A stretch of 64,000 bases of DNA, taken from assembly GCF_053078305.1 (NCBI RefSeq), contig NZ_CP166879.1, one strand, 5' to 3'. The translations under genes were made by a program, and so were the position numbers. A model generated the notes under the pieces. It ran no database searches. It had not been told where the DNA came from and was given only the letters and a program-made list of their open reading frames with translations. Below are positions 3,118-47,929 of this stretch, one piece after another. The first letter of the stretch is position 1, and each line of letters begins with the position of its first letter.

Positions 3118-3342
3118 TTAGTGGTTATTCGCTGCCAAATCGGCTTCGCTTAGCTGGGTGGCCGCGAGCACCTGGTCACGATCAATGCCCTGTTCCAGCA
3201 TGCGCAAAGCAATTTTAATGGCTTGTTCATGCATACCTTCCTGCAAACCTTCTAATTTACCTTGCTGCAAACCTACTAATTTACCTTCTTGCCAGCCAAT
3301 TTGATGTCCTTCCTGCCGTAGCCGTTCAGCAATAGTCATCAA
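3118..3342 (-). CDS. ypaA: Rpn-family C-terminal fragment paralog (YpaA-like)
   Basis: 74-aa ORF nearly identical to the C-terminal ~70 aa of the adjacent rpnB product ([21 protein letters not shown]...), including the 24-nt repeat. Confidence 0.6.
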   Translation of the reverse strand: MMTIAERLRQEGHQIGWQEGKLVGLQQGKLEGLQEGMHEQAIKIALRMLEQGIDRDQVLAATQLSEADLAANNH

Positions 3343-3351
3343 TCTCTCCTT

Positions 3352-4323
3352 TTAATGACAGTTCGGAATATCAGCATCAGTGAGTTGGGTTGCCGCCAGC
3401 ACAATCTCACGTTCAAAGCCCTGCTCCAGCATGCGCAAGGCAATTTTAATGGCTTGCTCATGCATGCCTTCCTGCAAACCTTCTAATTTACCTTTCTGCA
3501 GACCCTCCAATTTACCTTGCTGCAAACCTTCTAATTTACCTTCCTGCCAGCCAATTTGATGCCCTTCCTGCCTCAGCCGTTCAGCAATAGTCATTAATCT
3601 CTCCTTTTGTAGTGGTGAACGTTCGGCAATCTCCTGAATAAAACGGGTGAAACGGGAGGTATCGCCGCATTGCAGCAGATAATTAAACAGTGTTTGTAGC
3701 TGGCTGTCATTAGTGAAGCCTCTAACCAAAAGCGTGGTGATCCTGTCGACCATACCGATTAAATCGCGGTCGCGAATATGCTTTTGAATCAGTTCAAGCA
3801 GAGCTATACGCCGATGTTGCATGATCTCATCGTCAGGTACGATGGTAATATCCACCAACGGAAAAGCTTCGGTGTACAACTGCCGGGCAAGTTGCGGATC
3901 GTCAAACTCATCCAGCCAGTTGAGTGAGTACGGGTAGGGCGAGGTTTCGCCATGATAAAACAGCAACGGCACCACCAGCGGGACTCTGTCATAGCCTTTG
4001 TCCAGGTGACGCTGCATGGCGGCAGTGGCATAGCGCATTAGCCGAAAAGCCATATTCTTTTCTGCAGAGCTTTGATGTTCAATCACGCAGTAGATATAGC
4101 CGTCACCGTCGCTGGTTTCCACGGACCACAAAACATCCGAGTAGTAAGCGCGTAAACTTTTTTCAATAAAACTAGTGGGTTCCAGGCGTAAGGTTTGCAG
4201 GTTGCAAAGCTTGCGCAGTGGTTCTGGTAAATGTATTTCGAGAAAATCCCGTGCGGTTTCGGGTGTGAACATAAAGGTTTTAAATACTGCATCATGCGGG
4301 GAGGAGGTTGTTGATTCGGTCAT
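3352..4323 (-). CDS. rpnB: Rpn (YhgA-like) recombination-promoting nuclease / transposase_31 family protein
   Basis: 323-aa ORF ([17 protein letters not shown]...). Position between rhmA and glpC matches yfaD/rpnB. C-terminal GKLEGLQ repeats. Confidence 0.8.
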
Positions 4324-4515
4324 GGTTGTCCGTCACCTGATATTTATGATGACGCGACATTACGGTTATCCCAGGCCTTTGACATCTGCCAGTTTCAGCC
4401 TTTGCGAGACGTTTTCAGAGGAATTTTCACTGCGTTGCAACGCATACATTGGGCACGGAATCGTGTACGCAAAAATGCCCGGTAACCACATGCTTACCGG
4501 GCATCAGAAAGGAGT

Positions 4516-8580
<4,065 letters not shown>

Positions 8581-23600: not shown

Positions 23601-24400
23601 AGACGCTGAATTTACGTGTTATCGGTGGAGATTATCATTACACAGCAGCGGGGCAACTGGCTCAGCATGAAGACGCTTCTACGGTGCAGCTTAGCGGCGA
23701 CTTGTTTAGCGGGCGCTGGGGCACGGATGGCGAGTGGATGCTTGGGGCGGTTGGTGGCTACAGTGATAATCAGGGCGACAGCCGCTCTAATATGACCGGA
23801 ACTCGCGCCGATAACCAGAACCACGGTTATGGCGTTGGGTTGACCTCAAGCTGGTTTCAGCACGGTAACCAGAAGCAGGGGGCCTGGCTGGATAGCTGGC
23901 TGCAGTATGCGTGGTTTAACAATGATGTTTCCGAACATGGCGATGGCGCGGATCATTACCACTCGTCGGGGATTATCGCCTCGCTGGAAGCGGGGTATCA
24001 GTGGTTACCGGGGCGTGGTGTGGTGATTGAACCGCAGGCGCAGGTGATTTATCAGGGCGTGCAGCAGGATGATTTTACCGCCGCTAACCGTGCGCGCGTG
24101 TCACAATCGCAGGGTGATGATATTCAGACGCGGCTGGGTTTACACAGCGAATGGCGTACCGCTGTTCATGTCATACCAACATTAGATCTGAATTATTATC
24201 ACGATCCCCATTCGACGGAAATTGAAGAGGATGGCAGCACTATCAGTGACGATGCGGTGAAGCAACGGGGTGAAATAAAAGTGGGAGTCACGGGCAATAT
24301 CAGTCAGCGAGTGTCCCTGCGCGGCAGCGTGGCGTGGCAGAAAGGGAGTGATGATTTTGCCCAGACGGCAGGGTTTTTGTCGATGACGGTGAAATGGTAA
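20654..24400 (+). CDS. yfaL: AIDA-type autotransporter adhesin with Pro/Asp/Thr-rich linker and C-terminal beta-barrel
   Basis: 1248-aa ORF. Gly/Asn/Thr-rich beta-helix passenger; linker PPSPPDPDPTPDPTPDPDPTPDPEPTP at about 23400-23490; C-terminal translocator. Confidence 0.9.
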   Translation: MRIIFLRKEYLSLLPSMIASLFSANGVAAAIDSCQGYDIKASCHASRQSLSGITQVWSIADGQWLVFSDMTNNASGGAVFLQQGAEFTLSPENETGMTLFANNTVSGEYNNGGAIFAKENSTLNLTDVIFSGNVAGGYGGAIYSSGTNDTGAIDLRVTNAVFRNNIANDGKGGAIYTINNDIYLSDDVFNNNQAYTSTSYSDGDGGAIDVTDNNSDSKHPSGYTIINNTAFTNNTAEGYGGAIYTNSVTAPYLIDISVDDSYSQNGGVLVDENNSAAGYGDGPSSAAGGFMYLGLSEVTFDIADGKTLVIGNTENDGAVDSIAGTGVITKTGSGDLVLNADNNDFTGEMQIENGEVTLGRSNSLMNVGDTHCQDDPQDCYGLTIGSIDKYQNQAELNVGSTQQTFVHSLTGFQNGTLNIDAGGNVTVNQGSFAGTIEGAGQLTIAQNGSYVMAGAQSMALTGDIVVDAGAVLSLEGDAADLAALQDDPQSIVLNGGVLDLSDFSTWQSGTSYKDGLEVSGSSGTVIGSQDVVDLAGGNDMHIGGDGKDGVYVVIDAGDGQVSLANDNQYLGTTQIASGTLMVSDNSQLGDTHYNRQVIFTDKQQESVMEITANVDTRSTTTEHGRDIEMRADGEVAVDAGVDTQWGALMADSSGQHQDEGSTLTKTGAGTLELTASGTTQSAVRVEEGTLKGDVADIFPYASSLWVGDGATFVSGADQDIQSIDATSSGTIDISDGTVLRLTGQDTSVALNASLFNGDGTLVNATDGVTLTGELNTSLETDSLTYLADVTVNGNLTNTSGAVSLQNGVAGDTLTVNGDYTGGGTLLFDSELNGDDSASDQLVLNGNTAGNTTVVVNSITGIGEPTPTGIKVVDFAADPTQFQNNAQFSLAGSGYVNMGAYDYTLVEDNNDWYLRSQEVTPPSPPDPDPTPDPTPDPDPTPDPEPTPAYQPVLNAKVGGYLNNLRAANQAFVMERRDHAGGDGQTLNLRVIGGDYHYTAAGQLAQHEDASTVQLSGDLFSGRWGTDGEWMLGAVGGYSDNQGDSRSNMTGTRADNQNHGYGVGLTSSWFQHGNQKQGAWLDSWLQYAWFNNDVSEHGDGADHYHSSGIIASLEAGYQWLPGRGVVIEPQAQVIYQGVQQDDFTAANRARVSQSQGDDIQTRLGLHSEWRTAVHVIPTLDLNYYHDPHSTEIEEDGSTISDDAVKQRGEIKVGVTGNISQRVSLRGSVAWQKGSDDFAQTAGFLSMTVKW

Positions 24401-24404
24401 TCGC

Positions 24405-24535
24405 TGTCTGACCATCACTATTGCCGGATGCGGCGTAAACGCCTTATCTGGCCTACGGAGAGCATTTGTAGGCCTGATAAGACGCGGCAAGCGTCGCATC
24501 AGGCATTGGCGCGGTTGCCGGATGAATCCAAACAA
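24405..24535. repeat. REP elements
   Basis: gccggatgcggcgtaaacgccttatctggcctac... motifs between the convergent yfaL and ubiG. Confidence 0.75.
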
Positions 24536-24540
24536 CAACC

Positions 24541-25263
24541 TCACTTATTCTGCGTGTGCAGCATATAGTTCACATCCACGCCGGGGCCGAGTTTAAAAGT
24601 ATTAGTGATCGGGTTGTAATGTAGCCCGGTTATATGTCGCTCTTTAAGGCTTGTCTGATCTACCCAGCCAAGCAGCTCTGCCGGTTTAATAAACTTCTTC
24701 ACATCATGCGTGCCTTTGGGCACCATGCGCAAAATATATTCCGCGCCAACCACCGCCATCAGCCATGACTTGCCGTTGCGGTTAAGCGTCGAGAAAAAGA
24801 CATCGCCGCCTGGTTTCACCAGTTGCGCACAGGCTCTCACCACTGACTGCGGATCGGGAACGTGCTCCAGCATCTCCATGCAGGTCACCACATCATACTG
24901 CCCGGCATGTTTTGCCGCGTGCTCTTCCACGGTTTCCTGCACGTAATCCACCTGAATGCCGCTTTCCAGCGCGTGCAGTTTTGCCACCTGCAATGGCTCA
25001 AAGCCCATATCCAGACCGGTCACCGTCGCACCTTCGCGCGCCATACTCTCGGCCAGAATGCCGCCGCCACAACCGACATCGAGCACCTTTTTGCCGAATA
25101 AACCGCCAGCACGCTCGGCAATATAGCCCAGACGCAGCGGGTTAATGCGGTGCAGCGGTTTGAACTCACCTTCCAGATCCCACCAGCGGGAGGCGACGGC
25201 TTCAAATTTAGCGATCTCTTCGTGGTCTACGTTATGGTTTACCGGCGATTTTTCGGCATTCAT
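24541..25263 (-). CDS. ubiG: ubiquinone biosynthesis O-methyltransferase
   Basis: ORF 24541..25311; start taken at ATG 25263 ([21 protein letters not shown]...). SAM-binding VLDVGCGGG motif. Confidence 0.93.
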
Positions 25264-25329
25264 TGGCACTTCTACTCCGTAATTGGCAAGACAAACGAGT
25301 ATATCAGGCATTGGATGTGAATAAAGCGT

Positions 25330-25366
25330 ATAGGTTTACCTCAAACTGCGCGGCTGTGTTATAATT
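25330..25366 (+). promoter_or_regulatory. candidate gyrA promoter (-10 TATAAT at 25360-25365)
   Basis: Perfect TATAAT about 45 nt upstream of the gyrA ATG; the -35 element is not clear. Confidence 0.45.
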
Positions 25367-25409
25367 TGCGACCTTTGAATCCGGGATACAGTAGAGGGAT
25401 AGCGGTTAG

Positions 25410-28037
25410 ATGAGCGACCTTGCGAGAGAAATTACACCGGTCAACATTGAGGAAGAGCTGAAGAGCTCATATCTGGATTATGCGATGTCGGTCATTGTTG
25501 GCCGTGCGCTGCCAGATGTCCGAGATGGCCTGAAGCCGGTACACCGTCGCGTACTTTACGCCATGAACGTACTAGGCAATGACTGGAACAAAGCCTATAA
25601 AAAATCTGCCCGTGTCGTTGGTGACGTAATCGGTAAATACCATCCCCATGGTGACTCGGCGGTTTATGACACGATCGTCCGTATGGCGCAGCCATTCTCG
25701 CTGCGTTACATGCTGGTAGACGGTCAGGGTAACTTCGGTTCCATCGACGGCGACTCTGCGGCGGCAATGCGTTATACGGAAATCCGTCTGGCGAAAATTG
25801 CCCATGAACTGATGGCCGATCTCGAAAAAGAGACGGTCGATTTCGTTGATAACTATGACGGCACGGAAAAAATTCCCGACGTCATGCCAACCAAAATTCC
25901 TAACCTGCTGGTGAACGGTTCTTCCGGTATCGCCGTAGGTATGGCAACCAACATCCCGCCGCACAACCTGACGGAAGTCATCAACGGTTGTCTGGCGTAT
26001 ATCGATGATGAAGACATCAGCATTGAAGGGCTGATGGAACACATCCCGGGGCCGGACTTCCCGACGGCGGCAATCATTAACGGTCGTCGCGGTATTGAAG
26101 AAGCTTACCGTACCGGTCGCGGCAAGGTATATATCCGCGCCCGTGCTGAAGTGGAAGTTGACGCCAAAACCGGACGTGAAACCATTATCGTCCACGAAAT
26201 TCCGTATCAGGTAAACAAAGCGCGCCTGATCGAGAAGATTGCGGAACTGGTAAAAGAAAAACGCGTGGAAGGCATCAGCGCGCTGCGTGACGAGTCTGAC
26301 AAAGACGGTATGCGCATCGTGATTGAAGTGAAACGCGATGCGGTCGGTGAAGTTGTGCTCAACAACCTCTACTCCCAGACCCAGTTGCAGGTTTCTTTCG
26401 GTATCAACATGGTGGCATTGCACCATGGTCAGCCGAAGATCATGAACCTGAAAGACATCATCGCGGCGTTTGTTCGTCACCGCCGTGAAGTGGTGACCCG
26501 TCGTACTATTTTCGAACTGCGTAAAGCTCGCGATCGTGCTCATATCCTTGAAGCATTAGCCGTGGCGCTGGCGAACATCGACCCGATCATCGAACTGATC
26601 CGTCATGCGCCGACGCCTGCAGAAGCGAAAACTGCGCTGGTTGCTAATCCGTGGCAGCTGGGCAACGTTGCCGCGATGCTCGAACGTGCGGGCGACGATG
26701 CTGCGCGTCCGGAATGGCTGGAGCCAGAGTTCGGCGTGCGCGATGGTCTGTACTACCTGACCGAACAGCAAGCTCAGGCGATTCTGGATCTGCGTTTGCA
26801 GAAACTGACCGGCCTTGAGCACGAAAAACTGCTCGACGAATACAAAGAGCTGCTGGATCAGATCGCGGAACTGCTGCGTATTCTTGGTAGCGCCGATCGT
26901 CTGATGGAAGTGATCCGTGAAGAGCTGGAGCTGGTTCGTGAACAGTTCGGTGATAAACGCCGCACTGAAATCACCGCCAACAGCGCAGACATCAACCTGG
27001 AAGATCTGATCACTCAGGAAGATGTGGTCGTGACGCTCTCTCACCAGGGCTACGTTAAGTATCAGCCGCTTTCTGAATACGAAGCGCAGCGTCGTGGCGG
27101 GAAAGGTAAATCTGCCGCACGTATTAAAGAAGAAGACTTTATCGACCGACTGCTGGTGGCGAATACCCACGACCATATTCTGTGCTTCTCCAGCCGTGGT
27201 CGCGTCTATTCGATGAAAGTTTACCAGTTGCCGGAAGCCACTCGTGGCGCGCGCGGTCGTCCGATCGTCAACCTGCTGCCGCTGGAGCAGGACGAGCGTA
27301 TTACCGCTATCCTGCCGGTGACCGAGTTTGAAGAAGGCGTGAAAGTCTTCATGGCGACTGCTAACGGTACTGTGAAGAAAACCGTCCTCACCGAATTCAA
27401 CCGTCTGCGTACCGCCGGTAAAGTGGCGATCAAACTGGTTGAAGGCGATGAGCTGATCGGCGTTGACCTGACCAGCGGCGAAGACGAAGTAATGCTGTTC
27501 TCCGCCGAAGGTAAAGTGGTGCGCTTTAAAGAGTCTTCTGTCCGTGCGATGGGCTGCAACACCACCGGTGTTCGCGGTATTCGTTTAGGCGAAGGTGATA
27601 AAGTCGTCTCTTTGATCGTGCCTCGTGGCGATGGCGCAATCCTCACCGCAACGCAGAACGGTTATGGTAAACGTACCGCAGTGGCGGAATACCCGACTAA
27701 GTCGCGTGCGACGAAAGGGGTTATCTCCATCAAGGTTACCGAACGTAACGGTTTAGTTGTTGGCGCGGTGCAGGTAGATGACTGCGACCAGATCATGATG
27801 ATCACCGATGCCGGTACGCTGGTACGTACTCGCGTTTCGGAAATCAGCATCGTGGGCCGTAACACCCAGGGCGTAATCCTCATCCGTACTGCGGAAGATG
27901 AAAACGTGGTGGGTCTGCAACGCGTGGCTGAACCGGTTGACGAGGAAGATCTGGACACCATCGATGGCAGTGCTGCGGAAGGAGACGACGAAATCGCTCC
28001 GGAAGTGGACGTTGACGACGAGCCAGAAGAAGAATAA
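25410..28037 (+). CDS. gyrA: DNA gyrase subunit A
   Basis: 875-aa ORF ([53 protein letters not shown]...), acidic C-terminal tail. Confidence 0.97.
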
Positions 28038-28185
28038 TTTTACTTCTTCATGCCAAAAGGGAGCTATCTCCCTTGTTTGAATTGAAAAGTCCAGGCTGCA
28101 AAGTCTGGGCTTTTGTCGTATTAGGGCGCGGTAAAGTTTGGCTGTGTCCGTAAAAAATGGCTGGCTATACACAAGGAATGTGGCA

Positions 28186-35032
<6,847 letters not shown>

Positions 35033-36682
35033 GTGAACTGGCGCAGAATCGTCTGGCTATTGGCGTTGGTTACTCTGCCAACGCTTGCGGAGGAGACGCC
35101 GTTACAACTGGTGCTGCGCGGTGCGCAGCACGATCAACTGTATCAGCTGTCGTCATCAGGCGTGACCAAAGTCTCAGCATTACCTGACTCGCTCACCACG
35201 CCGTTAGGGAGTTTGTGGAAACTGTATGTTTACGCCTGGCTGGAGGATACCCATCAACCGGAGCAGCCCTACCAGTGTCGCGGAAACTCCCCGGAAGAGG
35301 TTTATTGTTGTCAGGCTGGGGAGAGCATAACGCGCGATACCGCGCTGGTACGTTCCTGTGGGCTCTATTTTGCGCCGCAGCGGTTGCATATTGGCGCAGA
35401 TGTGTGGGGGCAATACTGGCAACAGCGTCAGGCACCTGCGTGGTTAGCGTCTCTTACTACGCTGAAGCCAGAAACCTCGGTAACGGTTAAATCGCTGCTT
35501 GATTCATTAGCGACGTTACCTGCGCAAAACACAGCTCAGGAAGTCTTACTGGAAGTGGTGCTGGACGAGGCGAAAATCGGTGTCGCATCCATGCTCGGTA
35601 GTCGGGTACGGGTGAAAACCTGGAGCTGGTTTGCCGATGATAAACAGGAAATCCGTCAGGGTGGTTTTGCTGGCTGGTTAACCGATGGTACACCGCTGTG
35701 GGTTACTGGCAGTGGCACCAGCAAAACGGTACTGACCCGTTATGCGACGGTGCTTAATCGGGTTTTGCCAGTGCCGACGCAAGTTGCCAGTGGGCAATGT
35801 GTAAAGGTGGAGCTGTTTGCCCGCTATCCGCTGAAGAAAATCACAGCGGAAAAGAGTACGACGGCAGTAAAACCCGGCGTACTTAATGGGCGCTATCGTG
35901 TGACGTTTACTAATGGTAACCACATTACGTTTGTCAGCCACGGTGAGACGACCTTACTGAGCGAAAAGGGCAAACTGAAATTGCAGTCGCATCTTGATCG
36001 TGAAGAGTACGTTGCCAGAGTTCTGGATCGCGAGGCGAAAAGTACGCCCCCTGAGGCAGCGAAAGCCATGACCGTGGCGATTCGCACTTTTTTACAGCAA
36101 AACGCCAATCGGGAAGGCGATTGCCTGACCATCCCTGACAGCAGCGCCACGCAGCGTGTTTCTGCTTCGCCAGCTACCACGGGGGCGCGAACGATGACCG
36201 CCTGGACGCAGGATCTCATCTATGCGGGCGATCCGGTTCATTATCACGGCAGTCGCGCTACCGAAGGGACGCTTTCCTGGCGGCAAGCCACGGCCCAGGC
36301 GGGACGGGGAGAGCGTTACGACCAGATACTCGCGTTTGCTTATCCCGACAACAGCCTTAGCCGCTGGGGAGCGCCACGCTCAACCTGTCAGTTATTACCC
36401 AAAGCGAAAGCCTGGCTGGCGAAAAAAATGCCGCAGTGGCGGCGTATATTACAAGGCGAGACGGGGTACAACGAACCAGACGTGTTTGCGGTCTGTCGTT
36501 TAGTCTCAGGTTTCCCCTATACCGATCGGCAGCAGAAACGGCTGTTTATTCGTAACTTCTTTACGCTTCAGGATCGGCTGGATTTAACCCATGAGTATCT
36601 GCACCTGGCCTTTGATGGTTATCCCACCGGGCTTGATGAGAACTATATCGAAACGCTGACCCGACAATTATTAATGGACTAA
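35033..36682 (+). CDS. yfaQ: DUF2300-type protein YfaQ
   Basis: 549-aa ORF starting on GTG directly after the yfaS stop. Confidence 0.8.
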   Translation: MNWRRIVWLLALVTLPTLAEETPLQLVLRGAQHDQLYQLSSSGVTKVSALPDSLTTPLGSLWKLYVYAWLEDTHQPEQPYQCRGNSPEEVYCCQAGESITRDTALVRSCGLYFAPQRLHIGADVWGQYWQQRQAPAWLASLTTLKPETSVTVKSLLDSLATLPAQNTAQEVLLEVVLDEAKIGVASMLGSRVRVKTWSWFADDKQEIRQGGFAGWLTDGTPLWVTGSGTSKTVLTRYATVLNRVLPVPTQVASGQCVKVELFARYPLKKITAEKSTTAVKPGVLNGRYRVTFTNGNHITFVSHGETTLLSEKGKLKLQSHLDREEYVARVLDREAKSTPPEAAKAMTVAIRTFLQQNANREGDCLTIPDSSATQRVSASPATTGARTMTAWTQDLIYAGDPVHYHGSRATEGTLSWRQATAQAGRGERYDQILAFAYPDNSLSRWGAPRSTCQLLPKAKAWLAKKMPQWRRILQGETGYNEPDVFAVCRLVSGFPYTDRQQKRLFIRNFFTLQDRLDLTHEYLHLAFDGYPTGLDENYIETLTRQLLMD

Positions 36683-36686
36683 TGCT

Positions 36687-37463
36687 ATGCGAAAGATTTT
36701 TCTTCCGTTGTTACTGGTGGCGCTTTCGCCTGTCGCTCACAGTGAAGGTGTGCAGGAAGTCGAGATTGACGCACCGCTCTCAGGCTGGCATCCGGCAGAG
36801 GGCGAAGATGCCAGTTTTTCACAATCGATCAATTACCCGGCGTCGTCCGTCAACATGGCAGATGATCAAAATATCTCAGCGCAGATCCGCGGAAAAATAA
36901 AGAATTATGCTGCGGCGGGTAAAGTTCAGCAGGGCCGGCTGGTGGTCAACGGTGCCAGTATGCCGCAGAGAATTGAATCCGATGGTTCATTTGCACGCCC
37001 TTATATTTTCACTGAAGGCAGCAACAGCGTGCAGGTCATCAGCCCGGATGGGCAAAGCCGACAAAAAATGCAGTTTTACTCAACGCCGGGTACAGGAACG
37101 ATTCGTGCACGTTTACGGCTGGTTCTCTCGTGGGATACGGACAATACCGATCTCGATCTCCATGTTGTCACGCCCGATGGAGAACACGCCTGGTACGGTA
37201 ACACCGTGCTGAAAAACAGTGGTGCACTGGATATGGATGTCACGACGGGGTATGGACCCGAGATTTTCGCCATGCCAGCGCCAGTTCACGGACGCTATCA
37301 GGTGTATATCAACTACTATGGCGGACGCAGCGAAACGGAATTAACCACCGCCCAACTGACGCTGATCACCGATGAAGGATCGGTCAATGAGAAACAGGAA
37401 ACATTTATTGTACCGATGCGTAATGCTGGCGAGCTGACGCTGGTGAAAAGTTTTGACTGGTGA
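36687..37463 (+). CDS. yfaP: DUF2135-type protein YfaP
   Basis: 258-aa ORF with signal peptide (MRKIFLPLLLVALSPVAHS). Confidence 0.85.
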   Translation: MRKIFLPLLLVALSPVAHSEGVQEVEIDAPLSGWHPAEGEDASFSQSINYPASSVNMADDQNISAQIRGKIKNYAAAGKVQQGRLVVNGASMPQRIESDGSFARPYIFTEGSNSVQVISPDGQSRQKMQFYSTPGTGTIRARLRLVLSWDTDNTDLDLHVVTPDGEHAWYGNTVLKNSGALDMDVTTGYGPEIFAMPAPVHGRYQVYINYYGGRSETELTTAQLTLITDEGSVNEKQETFIVPMRNAGELTLVKSFDW

Positions 37464-37519
37464 TCCATCCCTTCACACAACCTGGCTCTTTCTTTTTTCA
37501 GATAAGACTGCTGGGCGAT

Positions 37520-37559
37520 CTGCCGACGCCAGGATATAACCATTAACAAGCGTCGGCAG
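37520..37559. other. 10-bp perfect inverted repeat (ctgccgacgc ... gcgtcggcag) in the yfaP-rcsC gap
   Basis: Read directly; 20-nt loop, followed by a T-rich stretch. Possible terminator or scar. Confidence 0.4.
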
Positions 37560-37737
37560 ATTGGTCATTTCTTATTTTTCGTACTGAGAACTGTCCATTT
37601 ACTCCGGCTTTCCTGGTTAAGGCAATGGTTTCTAAGCGATACGCATTATTGCAATGGTGACAGAACATTGCGGTAACACGCTTTTACCGCTACCTTAACC
37701 ACACTCCATCGGTCACCTGAGGCGGAGCTTCGCCCCT

Positions 37738-40786
<3,049 letters not shown>

Positions 40787-41437
40787 TTAGTCTTTATCTG
40801 CCGGACTTAAGGTCACAGAAGAGAGATAATTCAGCAGGGCGATATCGTTCTCGACACCCAGCTTCATCATCGCAGATTTCTTCTGGCTACTGATGGTTTT
40901 AATACTGCGGTTCAGCTTTTTAGCGATCTCGGTCACCAGGAAGCCTTCCGCAAACAGGCGCAGAACTTCACTCTCTTTTGGCGAGAGACGCTTGTCACCG
41001 TAACCACCAGCACTGATTTTTTCCAACAGGCGAGAAACGCTTTCCGGGGTAAATTTCTTCCCTTTCTGCAGCGCGGCGAGAGCTTTCGGCAGATCGGTCG
41101 GTGCACCTTGTTTCAGCACGATCCCTTCGATATCCAGATCCAATACCGCACTAAGAATCGCCGGGTTGTTGTTCATGGTCAGAACAATGATCGACAGGCT
41201 TGGGAAATGGCGCTTGATGTACTTGATTAAGGTAATGCCATCGCCGTACTTATCGCCAGGCATGGAGAGATCGGTAATCAACACATGCGCATCCAGTTTC
41301 GGCAGGTTGTTGATCAGTGCTGTAGAGTCTTCAAATTCGCCGACAACATTCACCCACTCAATTTGCTCAAGTGATTTGCGAATACCGAACAAGACTATCG
41401 GATGGTCATCGGCAATAATTACGTTCATATTGTTCAT
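40787..41437 (-). CDS. rcsB: Rcs phosphorelay response regulator (LuxR/FixJ-type)
   Basis: 216-aa ORF (MNNMNVIIADDHPIVLFGIRKSLEQ...). Confidence 0.97.
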   Translation of the reverse strand: MNNMNVIIADDHPIVLFGIRKSLEQIEWVNVVGEFEDSTALINNLPKLDAHVLITDLSMPGDKYGDGITLIKYIKRHFPSLSIIVLTMNNNPAILSAVLDLDIEGIVLKQGAPTDLPKALAALQKGKKFTPESVSRLLEKISAGGYGDKRLSPKESEVLRLFAEGFLVTEIAKKLNRSIKTISSQKKSAMMKLGVENDIALLNYLSSVTLSPADKD

Positions 41438-41481
41438 GTACTTGCACCTATGTATTAACTATTTGATTTTAAAAATATATT

Positions 41482-42771
41482 CTATGCTTTGTTTAGTCGT
41501 TGGGGCACCTGTGGGACATAAGTACATAGCTTTCTGTTTAGTACTTCTACCTGGGACTGGTTATTGTCTTTCATCCATGCACCGTAAACATTGTAAACCA
41601 TCTGGGCATTCGCATGTCCCATCTGGTTGGCTATGAAGTTTGGATTTGCTCCGGCAGTTAAAGCCCAGCAAGCATAAGTATGCCGAGACTGATACGCTTT
41701 TCTATGGCGAATTTTTGCTCGTTTTAATGCAGATTCCCATGTTCTGTTGATGGATGTTACGGCATAATGAACTCCTGAGTTACCTGTGCGATCTAATATC
41801 TGAGGATTGAAAACAAAGCTGCATGAGTGAGTGCTTGTCCGGCCATACTCTCGCAGCTTTACTTCTATCTGATATTGTTTACCAAGCCTGGTTAATGTCG
41901 CCTGATTTTTTAATACGTCAATTGCTGGCTGTATGAGTTGTATTACCCTGTTTGTTCCTGCATCTGTTTTGGGTAGTGTAAATTCCTTTGTCTGAGTGTA
42001 ATTCCTTTTGACGGTCAAGGTACCCGCTTCCAGATCGATATCCTCCCATGCTAGCCCACACAGTTCGCCATGCCGCATCCCGGTATATACAGCCAGCGAC
42101 CAGAAATTTTTAGTTTGCTGGTGGTGGCACGCATCAATCAGTCTGGCAAACTCATCTTTTGTTAGTGGATCGGGAGGTGTTTTCGCTCTTTTCAGTGATG
42201 GAAGCTCACTGAAAGGGTTTTTGCCTATATACCCATTGTTTGCCGCAAAACGGAACATCCCGGAGATAATTGTCATATAGCTATTTACAGTAGGTACACT
42301 ACGACCTTTAATAGGCTTCCTCTGATTTTTTCCTGGCAACTGATATCCCGTTAATAATTCTTTACGAAAAATGAGAACATCTTCCTGTGTAATTGATGAT
42401 GCCAGTTTGTTCCCTCCAAGGCAGTCAAGGCAATTTCGGATAGCTGATTTGTATCTGACCATGGCATTTGCTGTTATTTCCATTTTCTTAAGCTCAAGCC
42501 ATTTTTCCGAAAGTGCCTTAATGGTTATCTCTTTTTTTCCCAGACCAAAATGTTTCAGGTTAGGGGAATTAGGGAACTGCGCGGCGTAGTCGAAGCTCCC
42601 CATTCTTATTGCAAAACAAACGGAAGTGCGAAGTTCACCTGCGATCTTCCGGTTTTTGGCGGTGTCAGGAACACCGAGGTTTTCTCTGACACGTTTGCCG
42701 TTATAGTGAAACCATATGCGGAGTGATCCTCCATGGTTTTCAACGCCTGTCGGGTATGATGCGTTACTCAT
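41482..42771 (-). CDS. int: phage integrase (tyrosine recombinase, Rac IntR-like)
   Basis: 429 aa. C-terminal catalytic region with ...HTYACWALTAGANPNFIANQMGHANAQMVYNVYGAW... (R-H-R-Y family pattern). Confidence 0.92.
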   Translation of the reverse strand: MSNASYPTGVENHGGSLRIWFHYNGKRVRENLGVPDTAKNRKIAGELRTSVCFAIRMGSFDYAAQFPNSPNLKHFGLGKKEITIKALSEKWLELKKMEITANAMVRYKSAIRNCLDCLGGNKLASSITQEDVLIFRKELLTGYQLPGKNQRKPIKGRSVPTVNSYMTIISGMFRFAANNGYIGKNPFSELPSLKRAKTPPDPLTKDEFARLIDACHHQQTKNFWSLAVYTGMRHGELCGLAWEDIDLEAGTLTVKRNYTQTKEFTLPKTDAGTNRVIQLIQPAIDVLKNQATLTRLGKQYQIEVKLREYGRTSTHSCSFVFNPQILDRTGNSGVHYAVTSINRTWESALKRAKIRHRKAYQSRHTYACWALTAGANPNFIANQMGHANAQMVYNVYGAWMKDNNQSQVEVLNRKLCTYVPQVPQRLNKA

Positions 42772-42804
42772 TAAACCTCCCAGACGTCCAGGAGCATTAA
42801 CAGG

Positions 42805-43059
42805 TTAACCGGAACTTGCATTTTTGGCACCTGGTTGTTTCTGGTTTTCGATCCAGCGCATAATTTCCTCAATGTTGTATACACATTCACTGAAAGGCCC
42901 GGGCTCTCCTTCTGCTGCGTAATGACGGTATTCTTTCCCCAGTAACCAGGATTTTTTTCTTGCTCTGGCAATGGTTCCTGATTTCAGTCCAGTTGCAGCA
43001 ATAAGGGTTCTTTCTGTGCACCATTTGCTGGGCGTTATCTGATAGATGATTGTTTCCAT
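42805..43059 (-). CDS. xis: excisionase-like small DNA-binding protein
   Basis: 84-aa ORF immediately upstream of int, with an HTH-like segment (TERTLIAATGLKSGTIARARKKSW). Confidence 0.5.
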   Translation of the reverse strand: METIIYQITPSKWCTERTLIAATGLKSGTIARARKKSWLLGKEYRHYAAEGEPGPFSECVYNIEEIMRWIENQKQPGAKNASSG

Positions 43060-43233
43060 TCCTGACTCACACTATCTTCAGGCCACGGCAGTGGCACCAC
43101 ACGTCAAACATTCGCTTTACAACTTCACGGCAGTAGAAGCCGTGAGCATCTCTGGTTAAATCGTATCGGTACCCGTATCTGAGTCGTATCCATATTTCAA
43201 ACTCGCGATTCACGACTTATTCTCCTGCTGTCT

Positions 43234-43476
43234 TTATGCCAGTTCATCCGGTTGCGCTGGGGCCCAGGCCTTCCGTGGCCTGTATTTGCGGCGTTTTCTG
43301 GCTTCAATGCGTATCTTTGTCACCCTGACTGGCTTTGGTTCGTGCCGGAACACTTTGTTTCTGATATTACGCCGTGTATTCATCATCCAGATAAAACGCT
43401 GGGTATGGTCGCATCCGTCATCAACGGTAATTACTGTGCGGACCAGTTCATCGTTAATATCAACCATTTCACCCAT
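43234..43476 (-). CDS. hypothetical phage protein (basic, 80 aa)
   Basis: ORF in the early-left operon; overlaps the next gene's stop. Confidence 0.5.
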   Translation of the reverse strand: MGEMVDINDELVRTVITVDDGCDHTQRFIWMMNTRRNIRNKVFRHEPKPVRVTKIRIEARKRRKYRPRKAWAPAQPDELA

Positions 43477-44371
43477 TCACTGAGCCCTCATACGCGAATT
43501 TCGTGGCTTCCATCAGTTGCGTCCATACCCATTCAAGAAATTGTGCGTTTTCTCCTGAGCGGTCATATTCATCGACGCTGCGGGGCTTGATGGTCGCCAG
43601 TAGTGGCACAATCCGGTACTTCATCTGTTCGGTTAACTTGTCCGGTACAAGTCGCCAGCCGTTATATTTCGATGGAACATGGTGGTATTCAGCCAGGAAG
43701 CGTCGTATATCGTTTTTCATTTCCTCGCATGAGTTCTGATCATGAAGTGCAGCGGAAAGCCAGCGTCCGATATATTCAGGGATTCGCACATCAAGTACTT
43801 TTTCTGCCGTCGTCAGCATTGCCTGTCGGCAGGCGTTCCAGCCGTTGACATAGTGACGTGTTGCATCCCATGAAACCTGCACATCAGGGTAAGCATCCTG
43901 TTCTGTTCTCACTGGCGGTATCTGAGGAACAGTGAATAGTGGACTGACGATATATTTATCCAGAGAGCCTCCCCGCTCTTCTGCAAGATTTTCCCACGAT
44001 GTCATTGTGGGGACCCTGTAACCTGCTTTTTTGTGCGTATACATCCATGCTACTCTGCCGTTATCATCTGCGGCGGCAATGCGCTGCCAGGCAGGATAAA
44101 GCGGGGTGTATGTTTCTCTGTCATTACGGGCGTCAGGCATGGCATCAATACTGCAAACTTCCCCCGTAAGGTTATTCAGCCAGGCCTTCGGGCTAATCTC
44201 TGACGTTACGATTTCATCCAGTTTTTTCTCCAGATTTTCTATGTGACTGATTAGCGCAAGGATAACTGGCGGAGTGGCAAGGGAGTGAAATGCTTCCAGA
44301 TCACATCCCTTGTCTCCATATACGGTATTTTGTGCGGCGTCACGCAGTGCTTTCAGATCAGCTTCTTTCAT
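43469..44371 (-). CDS. hypothetical phage early protein (300 aa)
   Basis: Long ORF with protein-like composition in the int-proximal early region. Confidence 0.6.
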   Translation of the reverse strand: MKEADLKALRDAAQNTVYGDKGCDLEAFHSLATPPVILALISHIENLEKKLDEIVTSEISPKAWLNNLTGEVCSIDAMPDARNDRETYTPLYPAWQRIAAADDNGRVAWMYTHKKAGYRVPTMTSWENLAEERGGSLDKYIVSPLFTVPQIPPVRTEQDAYPDVQVSWDATRHYVNGWNACRQAMLTTAEKVLDVRIPEYIGRWLSAALHDQNSCEEMKNDIRRFLAEYHHVPSKYNGWRLVPDKLTEQMKYRIVPLLATIKPRSVDEYDRSGENAQFLEWVWTQLMEATKFAYEGSVNG

Positions 44372-44592
44372 CGTTCAGACTCCCTTGTTGCTGTTTTGTA
44401 GGCGCGCAGGATGTCGCGTGTTTTTCCTGATAATGACGACTTAACCAGGAAAAAGCCGCTCCGGCTTTCTGTGATGTCCGGCGTGCACAGAAGTACCGCA
44501 TCAACGACACGATTATGTTTTCGCAATGTCAGGCGGGAACTGGTGATAATCAGTTTTGCCTGTTCGCCGTAATCGGTGAATGAAATAATCAT
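44368..44592 (-). CDS. hypothetical phage protein (74 aa)
   Basis: Internal ATG of ORF 44368..44802 (MIISFTDYGEQAKL...); the longer frame would overlap the next gene out of frame. Confidence 0.4.
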   Translation of the reverse strand: MIISFTDYGEQAKLIITSSRLTLRKHNRVVDAVLLCTPDITESRSGFFLVKSSLSGKTRDILRAYKTATRESER

Positions 44593-44608
44593 CTGATGGC
44601 GATCTCCG

Positions 44609-44971
44609 TTATGAAAGTGTTCCTGCTGGTTCAATGCTGATAATTTCTGCTGCAATAAGCATACCTGCCAGCCATGCTTCGCCGAGCATGTCCTCATCCG
44701 TACATGCAAGATCACCGATCTGTATTGTGGCCATAATGTTAGTTTCACCGGTATATTCATCCTGTGCTTCTTCATACGGCAGCTCTTCATAAAGGTTTTC
44801 AATTGCGCAGGTTATTACATCCAGTCCCGTCAGATTGCCGACAACGTCCACTTCAAATGTTTCGCGGTACTCCCATTGCCCGAGTGTCAGACGAACCGTC
44901 TGTCTTGCCATGCGCCTGCATAATGTCATGTTCGGGTCGTAGTTCATGATTGCCGCAGTAGTGCTATTCAT
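44609..44971 (-). CDS. hypothetical phage protein, acidic (about 120 aa)
   Basis: ORF 44609..45016; ATG at 44971 (MNSTTAAIMNYDP...) follows the upstream gene's stop by 4 nt. Confidence 0.5.
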   Translation of the reverse strand: MNSTTAAIMNYDPNMTLCRRMARQTVRLTLGQWEYRETFEVDVVGNLTGLDVITCAIENLYEELPYEEAQDEYTGETNIMATIQIGDLACTDEDMLGEAWLAGMLIAAEIISIEPAGTLS

Positions 44972-45833
44972 GTTCTGCCTCCGGTGTGTAAATAGCTTTG
45001 TCGTGTTTAAATTCACCGTTCCAGTTTTTCTTCATAGGGAGTTCACCGTTCATGTAAAACTGGTATAAACGGTGGCATCCTTTTTCCAGCAATACGGGGG
45101 TGAATTTCGTGAATGTTGCTTTCCCGTGTGGAGTGATCTGTACTGCTTCTTCGGTCAGGTATCTGTCACGGGCATAAGAGGCCGTGCGCCAGCGGGGTGT
45201 TTTCTCCGGATCGCGTTGTTCGTTGAATACCCATTTTCGGCCAGACAGCCACCACATTATCTGGCTGGTATTTACGCCGTTCAGCGCACGGCAGAACTGG
45301 GGAACAGTCATGCCTTTAGAGAAATGTTTTTCCAGACTGTCTACGGTTGCAGAGAGCGTTTTATTTTCCAGGGCCATAGCTTCAGCCCGTTCTTCGGCCT
45401 CAATAACCATCAACGCGAGTTCCTTGCGAGTGAGTACGCGCTGAACATCGATGTTTTCCCGCTGAGTGAAGTAGAACTCCACAAGGTCTTCGTGATAGTT
45501 CCACGCCTGATCCGTTTCCAGCAATTTTGCGTGGTTGGCTGCGCCGCGTTCGGTCCAGAGGATGAGGGATCGAACATTGCTGGCAATTTTCACAGAGTAG
45601 CTTTGAGATACTCTGTGCTTAAGTTCACGTAGTTCATCGCCTTCCAGCAAAAAATAATGCTTTCCAACAACGAATCGTTCTTCGTTTCGGGAATGATTCT
45701 GGCGAATACGGATTGGTGTTGCTCCATAACCTGCCGCCAGTTGTTCAGTGGTCACAACGCGTTGACCGCGATATTCGATAATTTGCAAATCACGGGCTGC
45801 CACCGGCACAAGTTCAGTTGATTTTTTCATCAT
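44964..45833 (-). CDS. phage antirepressor-like protein (ORF6N / KilA-type N-terminal domain suspected)
   Basis: 289 aa (MMKKSTELVPVAARDLQIIEYRGQRVVTTEQLAAGYGATPIRIRQNHSRN...). Assignment is from motif memory, not a search. Confidence 0.45.
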   Translation of the reverse strand: MMKKSTELVPVAARDLQIIEYRGQRVVTTEQLAAGYGATPIRIRQNHSRNEERFVVGKHYFLLEGDELRELKHRVSQSYSVKIASNVRSLILWTERGAANHAKLLETDQAWNYHEDLVEFYFTQRENIDVQRVLTRKELALMVIEAEERAEAMALENKTLSATVDSLEKHFSKGMTVPQFCRALNGVNTSQIMWWLSGRKWVFNEQRDPEKTPRWRTASYARDRYLTEEAVQITPHGKATFTKFTPVLLEKGCHRLYQFYMNGELPMKKNWNGEFKHDKAIYTPEAEHE

Positions 45834-45853
45834 TACACCTCACGAAAAGCTGA

Positions 45854-46438
45854 TTAGTGGAACACTCTGGTTTCCGGTTCTGAGTTGTCAGTGGCTTCAC
45901 TGATAAGCCCATCCAGAATCATGTGCATCGCTCTGTAACCTTCCATTGTGATGCCGGTTTTTTCGCCGTCGCCCAGAGCGCCGGTGAATGCTTTGTACAT
46001 AAGAATGCTTTTGAGCAGCCCTGATTCCGCTCCGTAAGTTTCTATGAGTGCCCATTCCATATAGTTCTGCATAGCGAGACGTAATGGTTTCAGGTAGATT
46101 GTCATGCCACCGTTGTGGCCTCTGTACATGGTGCCCTTGTCTGTACCGCCATTCTCGTTAAGCACTTCGGTCCAGCCGTTTCTGGTGAGCTGTTCAGAGA
46201 AGAACATGGCGGTATAAAGCCAGCGCCAGTACATGATTGTCTTTTCCGGCGCGAGCTCACCTGTCATGCCTTTTTCTTCTGCTTCACTGATGCAACACAC
46301 TATTTCCAGACCATGCCAGATCGGCTCGTCAAAACAGCCTTCATCGAGCATTTCCAGTGCTTTGTTGATATCAAGCAGTCCGTAAGGTGTGTGGATACCT
46401 TCAGCGGTAAGAAAAAATAACTGTTCAGTTGCAGTCAT
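45854..46438 (-). CDS. hypothetical phage protein
   Basis: ORF 45854..46627; ATG at 46438 (MTATEQLFFLTAEGIHTPYG...). Confidence 0.5.
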   Translation of the reverse strand: MTATEQLFFLTAEGIHTPYGLLDINKALEMLDEGCFDEPIWHGLEIVCCISEAEEKGMTGELAPEKTIMYWRWLYTAMFFSEQLTRNGWTEVLNENGGTDKGTMYRGHNGGMTIYLKPLRLAMQNYMEWALIETYGAESGLLKSILMYKAFTGALGDGEKTGITMEGYRAMHMILDGLISEATDNSEPETRVFH

Positions 46439-46985
46439 GGTTTGCTCTCTTCTTAAATGGTCTTTGCGCGACAAGCCGGCAATACTGATCAATCCAGGCG
46501 TTGTATTTTTCCATCCAGGCATCAAACTGTTTTCTGCGTGCAAGGATGCGCAACAGGCGATGAAAACAACGCCCGTGAGCTCTGTAGTATTCGGGCGTAA
46601 TTTCTCCCGGATGAAAGACTTCTCCATATTCCGGATGCATCAGGCGCTGGTCAGGCAGACGTTTTTCAAAACCTGAACTTTCGAATACCTTCGTTGTCAT
46701 AAAATGAGCGAGATGTATGATGGCCGTTTTTCGCGTGAAGCATTTCTTAACTTGTCCGTGGCGGCAGACTCTGTAAACAGGGCCGCAATCGAGTTCGTAT
46801 TTATGAAAAGCACGGTCGATTCCGGCATTATTTATTGCACTGTATTCCGTATCACTGAAGAAAGGTGGAAATACGATGTATCCTTCCATTGTCAGCGCCA
46901 GAACGCGCGGATCGGTTTCTGTCAGCCATTCGTTTTCTGTGAATTCTTCAGAATTAATTTCAATGATTTCAGGTTCTTCTTTCAT
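46425..46985 (-). CDS. hypothetical phage protein (186 aa)
   Basis: ORF with protein-like composition, operon-packed with its neighbours. Confidence 0.5.
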   Translation of the reverse strand: MKEEPEIIEINSEEFTENEWLTETDPRVLALTMEGYIVFPPFFSDTEYSAINNAGIDRAFHKYELDCGPVYRVCRHGQVKKCFTRKTAIIHLAHFMTTKVFESSGFEKRLPDQRLMHPEYGEVFHPGEITPEYYRAHGRCFHRLLRILARRKQFDAWMEKYNAWIDQYCRLVAQRPFKKRANHDCN

Positions 46986-47157
46986 GGTTACTCCGTGTTC
47001 ATCCGGTGTTAATTACTTTTATTCACTCTGAGCGCAGCCAGAAGATGTGGCTCAGCAATTCGTTTGTTGCGATATATCTGTGATACAGCCTGGCCTTTTC
47101 AGGTTGTAAAAATCCCCGACAATAAAGCTGTAAATTAATTACTGTTCTTAAATAATG

Positions 47158-47352
47158 TTATTCGTTTTCAGTCCGGCACAGATGCTTTTCTGCTTTGTCT
47201 GCTGTACAGGATAATGAGCGGAAAAGACAATTCATCATGTTTAGCGCATCTGGTGAACCAATATCACCGCTGTCAATAATCACCTGTAACAAAGACAGGC
47301 TTTCTGTTATCTCGCAGTGGACATTATCGAGTACTTCAACGCAATTATTCAT
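47158..47352 (-). CDS. small hypothetical phage protein (64 aa)
   Basis: Shares a pattern with the 47930..48130 product (...SGD.G..D...C.RS...T..KA). Confidence 0.4.
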   Translation of the reverse strand: MNNCVEVLDNVHCEITESLSLLQVIIDSGDIGSPDALNMMNCLFRSLSCTADKAEKHLCRTENE

Positions 47353-47392
47353 TTTTCATTATCTCCGTTATTCCGGGGGAGGAGCTATGCTG

Positions 47393-47755
47393 TTAATGAT
47401 TAACGCATCTGGTAATATGCCCCTCTTTAATGTAATCGATGCATTCATTCAAAAGTTCATCAATGATTAACTTTCCTGATTCAGTCAGATACTCACCATG
47501 TTGGTTGATACCGACAGCATCCTGGTATGCAGTGCGTATTGCTGTTTCACCATCTTTCCGCCCAAACTCACCACGGGTAACGCCTTCAAATCGTAATAGC
47601 AACTGGTTTATGAACTGTTCTGTTATTTCAATAGTTGTTAACTCTCCATCATGACGCTTTACAGTGAGGAGATTACTTCCTGTTTTTCGTTTCATCCGCC
47701 GCAGTGCTGCAACCGTTATGCGGCGACGATATGCAGAAATGTATTTATCTTTCAT
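47393..47755 (-). CDS. hypothetical phage protein (120 aa)
   Basis: ORF in the leftward early operon. Confidence 0.45.
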   Translation of the reverse strand: MKDKYISAYRRRITVAALRRMKRKTGSNLLTVKRHDGELTTIEITEQFINQLLLRFEGVTRGEFGRKDGETAIRTAYQDAVGINQHGEYLTESGKLIIDELLNECIDYIKEGHITRCVNH

Positions 47756-47929
47756 TTGTTATTTCCCGTATGCCTTTTTGAGAAACAATACTGCAACTGA
47801 CCAGTATCCGGCATCAGCCATTAATAAAGCGGTTTTATAGGCATGTTTGTCTTTCATGTGTCATCCCCATTTTTAAATAGTGAGAATTCACGACCGCAGA
47901 CCGTCATGTTTTTATGTATGATTGTCTGT

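Follow-up and report, generated by a model that had tools for sequence, protein, structure and literature searches.

The window, that is, the whole 64,000-nucleotide stretch of DNA analysed here (contig NZ_CP166879.1), carries on its minus strand an integrase gene, int, followed downstream by rcsB (Table 1). The spacing between the int stop (41482) and the rcsB ATG (41437), read from the sequence, is 44 nt (41438..41481), with both genes on the minus strand, just as the first-pass annotation had described. The same annotation had drawn attention to a TAA triplet at 41457-41455, which does indeed stand 17 nt ahead of the rcsB ATG and shares its frame with the TAG of int. The coding sequence of rcsB is whole, and the uninterrupted genome NZ_CP026345.1 encodes an RcsB protein identical to the one in the window. 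The intergenic space between the convergent genes rcsB and rcsC (40600-40790) is occupied by palindromic repeats of the REP type (GCCGGATGCGGCGTAAACGCCTTATCCGGCCTAC-like), which is ordinary for E. coli. On the other side of rcsC, the genes atoSCDAEB, found between rcsC and yfaP in K-12-like genomes and in the lysogen 2012EL-2448 (24142-31553 of locus L002), are missing from the window at about 37464-37738. This absence is common to many other E. coli, in which the stretch matches in one piece, and it looks like an ordinary lineage polymorphism.

Table 1. Features of the window around rcsB, and the attachment-site sequences compared (inner brackets enclose the core)
Feature	Position	Strand	Basis or remark
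rcsC	37738..40587	plus	convergent with rcsB, as in other E. coli
rcsB, intact CDS, 216 aa	40787..41437	minus	ORF list, translation
att core of attL, TACATGAACAA, 11 bp	41430..41440	minus	attB-attL-attR comparison
Phage attP P' arm, non-coding part, now the entire 5' flank of rcsB	41441..41481	minus	homology to yecE-type arm; no rcsD-rcsB similarity
Phage-supplied Shine-Dalgarno for rcsB (predicted), AGGTG	41445..41449	minus	predicted duplex with 16S 3' end
Sigma-70-like site, TAAACA, 18-nt spacer, TAAAAT, straddling the int stop	41466..41495	minus	consensus scan, 9 of 12
int, lambda-type tyrosine integrase, 429 aa	41482..42771	minus	Pfam domains, catalytic residues, 73% identity to yecE-type Int
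Candidate arm-type Int-binding motif GTCCCACAGGTGCCCCA, within int 3' end	41501..41517	minus	related motif TGTCCCATACATGCCCCAT on the P arm at attR
Excisionase-like gene, 84 aa	42805..43059	minus	RefSeq xisR, excisionase family, for the identical gene in relatives; PF06806
CI-like repressor, helix-turn-helix and LexA-type self-cleaving domain	48816..49514	minus	NCBIfam; RefSeq "LexA family protein"
Lambdoid, Stx-phage-like prophage, left 22.5 kb of ~62 kb	41441..64000		collinear with the prophages of 2012EL-2448 and 04-00955
attB, CCTAT[TACATGAACAA]TATGAAC			uninterrupted genome NZ_CP026345.1
attL, GCAAG[TACATGAACAA]TATGAAC			window
attR, CCTAT[TACATGAACAA]CGTACTT			12 genomes

The alignment of attB, attL and attR indicates that the prophage end is located, to the base, on the start codon of rcsB. 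In the uninterrupted locus of NZ_CP026345.1, rcsD ends in ...CTGTAG and is followed by a 16-nt spacer, CAAGGTAGCCTATTAC, and then by rcsB, ATGAACAATATGAACG. When the window is aligned with this locus, similarity starts at TAC-ATG, from 41440 downwards, and TAC is all that is shared with the native spacer. In 11 other loci, attL has this same junction. At the opposite end, attR of 2012EL-2448 reads, from rcsD, ...CTGTAG CAAGGTAGCCTATTAC ATGAACAA CGTACTTGTTGCATTTTAAAAATCG, and this junction is identical in 12 of 12 relatives (2012EL-2448, 04-00955 and ten further assemblies), where attR retains the TAG stop of rcsD and the native 16-nt spacer in full. The three sites share the 11-bp core, which contains the rcsB ATG (41437-41435) together with 3 nt upstream and 5 nt downstream of it. 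Empty sites have a single copy of the core, and lysogens have two, directly repeated, one at each end of the prophage, with attR known from the relatives. The 44-nt gap between int and rcsB is the prophage end, attL; three of its nucleotides (TAC) belong to the core, and the other 41 (41441-41481) are phage DNA.

A different reading had been offered by the first-pass annotation, which let the att core overlap the 3' end of rcsD. On such a model, the TAA at 41455-41457 would be a rebuilt stop codon of rcsD, and the last 17 nt before rcsB would be native. The distance of 17 nt from TAA to ATG does come near the native spacing of 16 nt. However, the native rcsD ends in TAG rather than TAA, the gap contains no rcsD sequence and has only TAC in common with the native spacer, its 41 phage nucleotides are homologous to the arm of a phage attachment site, and in 12 genomes attR still carries the unbroken native stop and spacer. 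Because the TAA sits in the phage P' arm, its distance from the ATG is a coincidence. The alignment with an uninterrupted rcsD-rcsB locus that the annotation had proposed did locate the core of attL, only not in the 3' end of rcsD, and the comparison of attB, attL and attR refutes that placement so thoroughly that we attach practically no probability to it. By contrast, the same annotation was right in placing rcsD, with its internal rcsB promoters, beyond the prophage. A search of the window for attR, a second att core or rcsD found none of them; the 41-mer around the gap is single-copy, and neither ompC nor rcsD sequence is present. The window ends (64000) within the lysis genes, and attR and rcsD lie beyond it. 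Both were found at the other prophage end, where the annotation had suggested looking, in 12 relatives; the rcsD adjoining attR is complete (890 aa) and lies 62-65 kb from rcsB (about 65 kb in 2012EL-2448).

At attR of the relatives (3220-3246 of locus L003), the native rcsB Shine-Dalgarno sequence and ATG are fused to phage DNA, giving an 8-codon open reading frame (MNNVLVAF, then a stop). Reconstruction of attP places the core between the halves of a perfect 7-bp inverted repeat, CAAGTAC ... GTACTTG, outside which lie AT-rich elements in a roughly symmetrical arrangement. This is the usual appearance of core-type integrase sites, and a centred 7-bp overlap, TGAACAA, would fall wholly within the 11-bp identity.

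The junction between int and rcsB is present in 13 of 5426 complete E. coli genomes (rcsB is whole in 12 of them and cut by an insertion sequence, IS, in the 13th) and also in many draft assemblies. The exact Int protein occurs in 4046 blocks of a public assembly index, and in 10 of 10 places inspected among the matches listed it lies 44 nt upstream of rcsB. Thus, the prophage junction next to rcsB that had been proposed from the window recurs in 12 complete E. coli genomes and 10 of 10 public assemblies inspected. This recurrence bears on a further alternative, namely that the junction arose by inversion or recombination between prophages, or is an assembly error, rather than by site-specific integration. 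In E. coli strains that carry many lambdoid prophages, rearrangement between them is frequent. Nonetheless, many independent genomes, complete as well as draft, share attL and attR to the base, the host flanks keep their collinear order (ompC-rcsD at one prophage end, rcsB-rcsC at the other), and the core is found once in empty sites and twice in lysogens, so that an origin by rearrangement or misassembly seems scarcely credible.

Over 7290 nt, the contig JPQG01000003.1 of GCA_000736735.1 matches the window with 100% identity, and the host backbone of the window shows at most 98.8% identity to complete genomes. Since the host flanks of different lysogens diverge by 0.6-1.8%, and since one lysogen, 04-00955, is an O2:H6 STEC/UPEC hybrid (PMC3958309), the rcsB site is, on this comparison of sequences, used in several host lineages. 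No description of rcsB or rcsD as a prophage integration site was found in the open-access papers and bioRxiv preprints searched. The locus is also visited by insertion sequences. In the lysogen FHI_NMBU_10 an IS3-family element interrupts rcsB (4364-6325 of locus L007), and in EH031, from which the prophage is absent, IS600 lies between rcsD and rcsB (1697-2969 of locus L008). These elements likewise part rcsB from rcsD or interrupt rcsB, although they do so by transposition, with no integrase or att system.

The integrase has the features expected of a lambda-type enzyme. It contains an arm-binding domain (PF12167, Arm-DNA-bind_2, residues 7-70, E = 1.3e-23) and a Phage_integrase domain (PF00589, residues 203-396), and residues R233, K268, R363, H386 and Y396 align with the catalytic motifs of Tn1549 Int, a tyrosine integrase of solved structure, the His of the HxxR motif being ambiguous in the alignment. 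By these sequence features, Int is a heterobivalent tyrosine integrase, and the integration is of the ordinary lambda type at an unusual position. The likenesses to the lambda Int/attP system include, besides a heterobivalent tyrosine integrase with an arm-binding domain, an int gene that adjoins attP and comes to lie beside attL in the lysogen, a short identical core duplicated at the prophage ends, and the inverted repeat around the core. In contrast, the attB of lambda is intergenic (gal-bio) and its use splits no operon, and the similarity of the rcsB-type Int to lambda Int is marginal (E ~1e-4).

The nearest relatives of this integrase lie elsewhere. Among sequenced phages, the best matches are the integrases of Stx phages that integrate in yecE, with 73% protein identity overall; no sequenced phage with an rcsB-type integrase was found beyond this level. 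The first ~80 residues, covering the N-terminal arm-binding domain, are identical to those of the yecE-type Int, the central and C-terminal parts diverge, and at the nucleotide level similarity to phage records ends after xis and the 5' third of int. The 40-mer of the reconstructed attP had no match in IMG/VR viral contigs and none in JGI metagenome contigs.

The kinship extends to both arms of the attachment site. In two phages of the yecE type, Stx2_12E129_yecE (LC567842) and YYZ-2008 (NC_011356), the order xis-int-attP is the same, and the spacers from the int stop to the annotated core duplication (39 nt and 37 nt, respectively) are homologous to 41441-41481, with the common sequence AAAATCAA(A/T)TAGTT; the TAA at 41455-41457 falls in this conserved arm element. 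The int stop thus lies 37-41 nt off the core across both phage types. On the opposite side, the P arm beside attR is 86% identical to the yecE-type P arm over ~240 bp, starting 13 nt off the core. A motif, TGTCCCAyAsrTGCCCCA, is found on both attP arms of both phage types. The copy in the window, GTCCCACAGGTGCCCCA, lies within the 3' end of int, and a related motif, TGTCCCATACATGCCCCAT, is found on the opposite (P) arm at attR (about 3345-3365 of locus L003) and on both arms of the yecE-type attP. GTCCCACAGGTGCCCCA and TGTCCCATACATGCCCCAT are candidates for an arm-type integrase-binding site, which in int would double as coding sequence. The cores of the two phage types, on the other hand, are unrelated: the yecE-type phages have a duplication of 21 bp, compared with 11 bp here, and their target is yecE instead of the start codon of rcsB. 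As far as these alignments tell, the attP/Int scaffold is that of the yecE type, with another core and another core-recognizing part of Int, a pattern that suggests modular retargeting, with rcsB in place of yecE.

The rest of the prophage portion of the window fits a lambdoid element. The leftward block headed by the CI-like repressor and ending in xis, int and rcsB has all of its genes on the minus strand. The repressor matches DicA/RstR in its N-terminal and LexA/UmuD in its C-terminal part in NCBIfam, whereas the 84-aa excisionase-like protein has no match in that collection. Unlike in the yecE-integrating Stx phages, stx genes were not seen: none occurs among the gene matches of the window, or in the RefSeq annotation of related prophages, in the interval between the Q-like gene and the lysis genes (~54.7-60.0 kb). 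The place of stx in Stx phages is occupied here, downstream of the Q-like gene, by an HsdM-like methyltransferase gene (569 aa) and an HsdS-like specificity gene (369 aa) on the plus strand (56467-59360), both with weak NCBIfam matches; a restriction subunit was not seen. An open reading frame of 966 aa at 55276..58176 was rejected as a real large gene, being a mechanical over-extension of the 569-aa HsdM-like gene. In related prophages, the last gene before attR encodes a 1330-aa serine-protease autotransporter of the S6 family and is convergent with rcsD (34981-38973 of locus L004; 3771-7763 of locus L003). Transcripts from the rcsB promoters inside rcsD would enter the phage arm at attR, antisense to this protease gene. 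GCA_000736735.1 was not among the places listed for an exact-sequence search with the protease gene. Near the autotransporter gene, the related prophages also carry genes for YadA-like adhesins and an 8.4-kb gene with an LPD38 domain, that is, cargo of a virulence type at the prophage end.

The position of the junction has consequences for the expression of rcsB. The major rcsB promoters lie inside the coding region of rcsD, and the rcsD promoter contributes a minor share (bioRxiv 10.1101/2020.01.14.906271; PMC3572086). In the lysogen, all native sequence upstream of position -3 of rcsB has been replaced by phage DNA and moved to attR. Since the known promoters are on the far side of the prophage, rcsB must, judging from their published positions, be transcribed from phage DNA in the lysogen, and the change in rcsB transcription that the first-pass annotation had anticipated follows from their displacement with rcsD.

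As to translation, the phage arm supplies a predicted Shine-Dalgarno sequence. Position 41445, 8 nt ahead of the rcsB ATG, is polymorphic, and a G there lengthens AGGT to AGGTG. The G allele is present in the window, 04-00955, GCA_009296305.1 and GCA_000736735.1, whereas the remaining 8 lysogen loci that were examined have an A. The predicted duplex with the anti-Shine-Dalgarno sequence has an energy of -6.1 kcal/mol for the G allele and -3.8 kcal/mol for the A allele, compared with -4.0 kcal/mol for the native AGGT. Because the yecE-type arm carries GGTAG at the equivalent position, the AGGT may have been inherited from an ancestral arm, with no selection for it as a Shine-Dalgarno sequence.

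As to transcription, neither a terminator-like site nor a structured RNA was found in the 44-nt gap, and the predicted fold of the region is less stable than that of shuffled sequence (z = +1.75). A scan of the leftward block from the repressor to int gave no convincing terminator on the minus strand. The site with similarity to sigma-70 promoters that straddles the int stop is the sole such match near rcsB, and it is weak, such sites being rarer in the region than in shuffled sequence. Since the gap has neither a terminator nor a stable hairpin, read-through from int is plausible, and read-through from int or the leftward operon would be the most likely route by which rcsB is transcribed.

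From what was observed (where the core and the junctions lie, that rcsB and rcsD are unbroken, that the gap is phage DNA and that it holds no terminator), we infer how rcsB might be transcribed, and with it the amount of RcsB and the phenotype. Very probably, a lambdoid prophage of ~62 kb has its attL on the rcsB start codon, with rcsD and the native signals at attR, so that rcsB would be expressed from phage signals. The heterobivalent Int would recombine at the core containing the start codon, and the prophage thereby lands between rcsD and rcsB. The reading frame of rcsB is kept because the ATG and the following 5 nt are in the core. The gene rcsD, its stop, the native 16-nt spacer with its Shine-Dalgarno sequence, and all native rcsB promoters come to lie at attR, 62-65 kb away. 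At attL, the P' arm, which extends 41 nt past the int stop, turns into the 5' flank of rcsB, offering AGGT or AGGTG at a workable spacing from the ATG and no terminator. Translation of rcsB would then most likely start with the help of the phage-supplied Shine-Dalgarno sequence, and its transcription would come from leftward read-through of the cI...xis-int block, from the weak promoter at the int stop, or from both. The supply of RcsB would be uncoupled from rcsD and tied to transcription of the prophage, and a rise would be expected upon prophage induction. As regards the origin of the site, this phage and its relatives of the yecE type have the attP arms and the arm-binding domain of Int in common, and differ only in the core and in the core-binding and catalytic part of Int.

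It could also be that rcsB is silent or poorly expressed in lysogens. Integration would then have a polar effect, shutting off rcsB or reducing it strongly, with an rcsB-low phenotype. Every known rcsB promoter has been removed, the one promoter-like site that remains is weak (9 of 12), and the leftward early genes and int of a repressed lambdoid prophage are expected to be little transcribed. The lysogen with an IS3-family element inside rcsB and the strain with IS600 between rcsD and rcsB also speak for such a loss. Moreover, the outcome would be in line with the widespread loss of rcsB function in STEC that reviews cite (PMC10562709). On the other hand, a usable Shine-Dalgarno sequence is predicted, with a stronger allele in four genomes, and phage transcription toward rcsB is unshielded by any terminator found. 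RcsB is unaltered in 11 of the 12 lysogen loci examined (the exception has the IS3-family insertion), an observation that carries little weight, given the high conservation of rcsB in general and the possibility that the integrations are recent. On balance, silencing, the main alternative, is the less likely outcome, and expression of rcsB from phage signals remains the reading that we prefer.

Other elements that split operons offer useful comparisons. SpyCIM1 at mutL of Streptococcus pyogenes and the comK prophage of Listeria reportedly do so at the 5' end of a gene, an arrangement referred to as "active lysogeny". Like them, the rcsB prophage separates a host gene from its expression signals, being placed between an upstream gene, rcsD, with the rcsB promoters, and the downstream gene rcsB, and precise excision would restore the operon. 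The cases differ in that the coding sequence of rcsB stays whole and gains a putative phage Shine-Dalgarno sequence. In another group of prophages, which includes phage 21 and e14 at icd, 933W at wrbA, and those that integrate in tRNA genes, the phage supplies a replacement gene end. There, as here, the phage arm rebuilds a functional version of the part that it displaces. Those phages, however, replace 3' coding ends, whereas at rcsB the 5' untranslated region and all transcription signals, and no coding sequence, are replaced.

The Rcs envelope-stress phosphorelay has RcsB as its output regulator, which controls capsule, motility and biofilm. Together with GadE, RcsB controls acid resistance, and it influences the expression of virulence genes in EHEC. 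The prophage breaks up the rcsDB operon and puts phage DNA in place of the entire 5' control region of rcsB, leaving the gene intact. If rcsB is expressed normally under these conditions, the start codon of rcsB is merely one more integration site. A bolder idea, which we regard as speculative and rather improbable, is that the prophage rewires the Rcs phosphorelay, with RcsB low or altered in stable lysogeny, a surge by leftward read-through upon SOS induction, and the native rcsDB operon restored by precise excision. If true, this would be an operon-splitting switch over capsule, motility, biofilm, acid resistance and phage susceptibility in STEC, clinical strains of which, along with a STEC/UPEC hybrid, are among the hosts, and in other E. 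coli. Apart from this idea, the junction itself provides a natural and easily testable case of a phage taking over the expression of a global regulator. In addition, the locus may offer a clean example of a lambdoid attP/Int module acquiring a new target, rcsB instead of yecE, through changes confined to the core and the core-recognizing part of Int.
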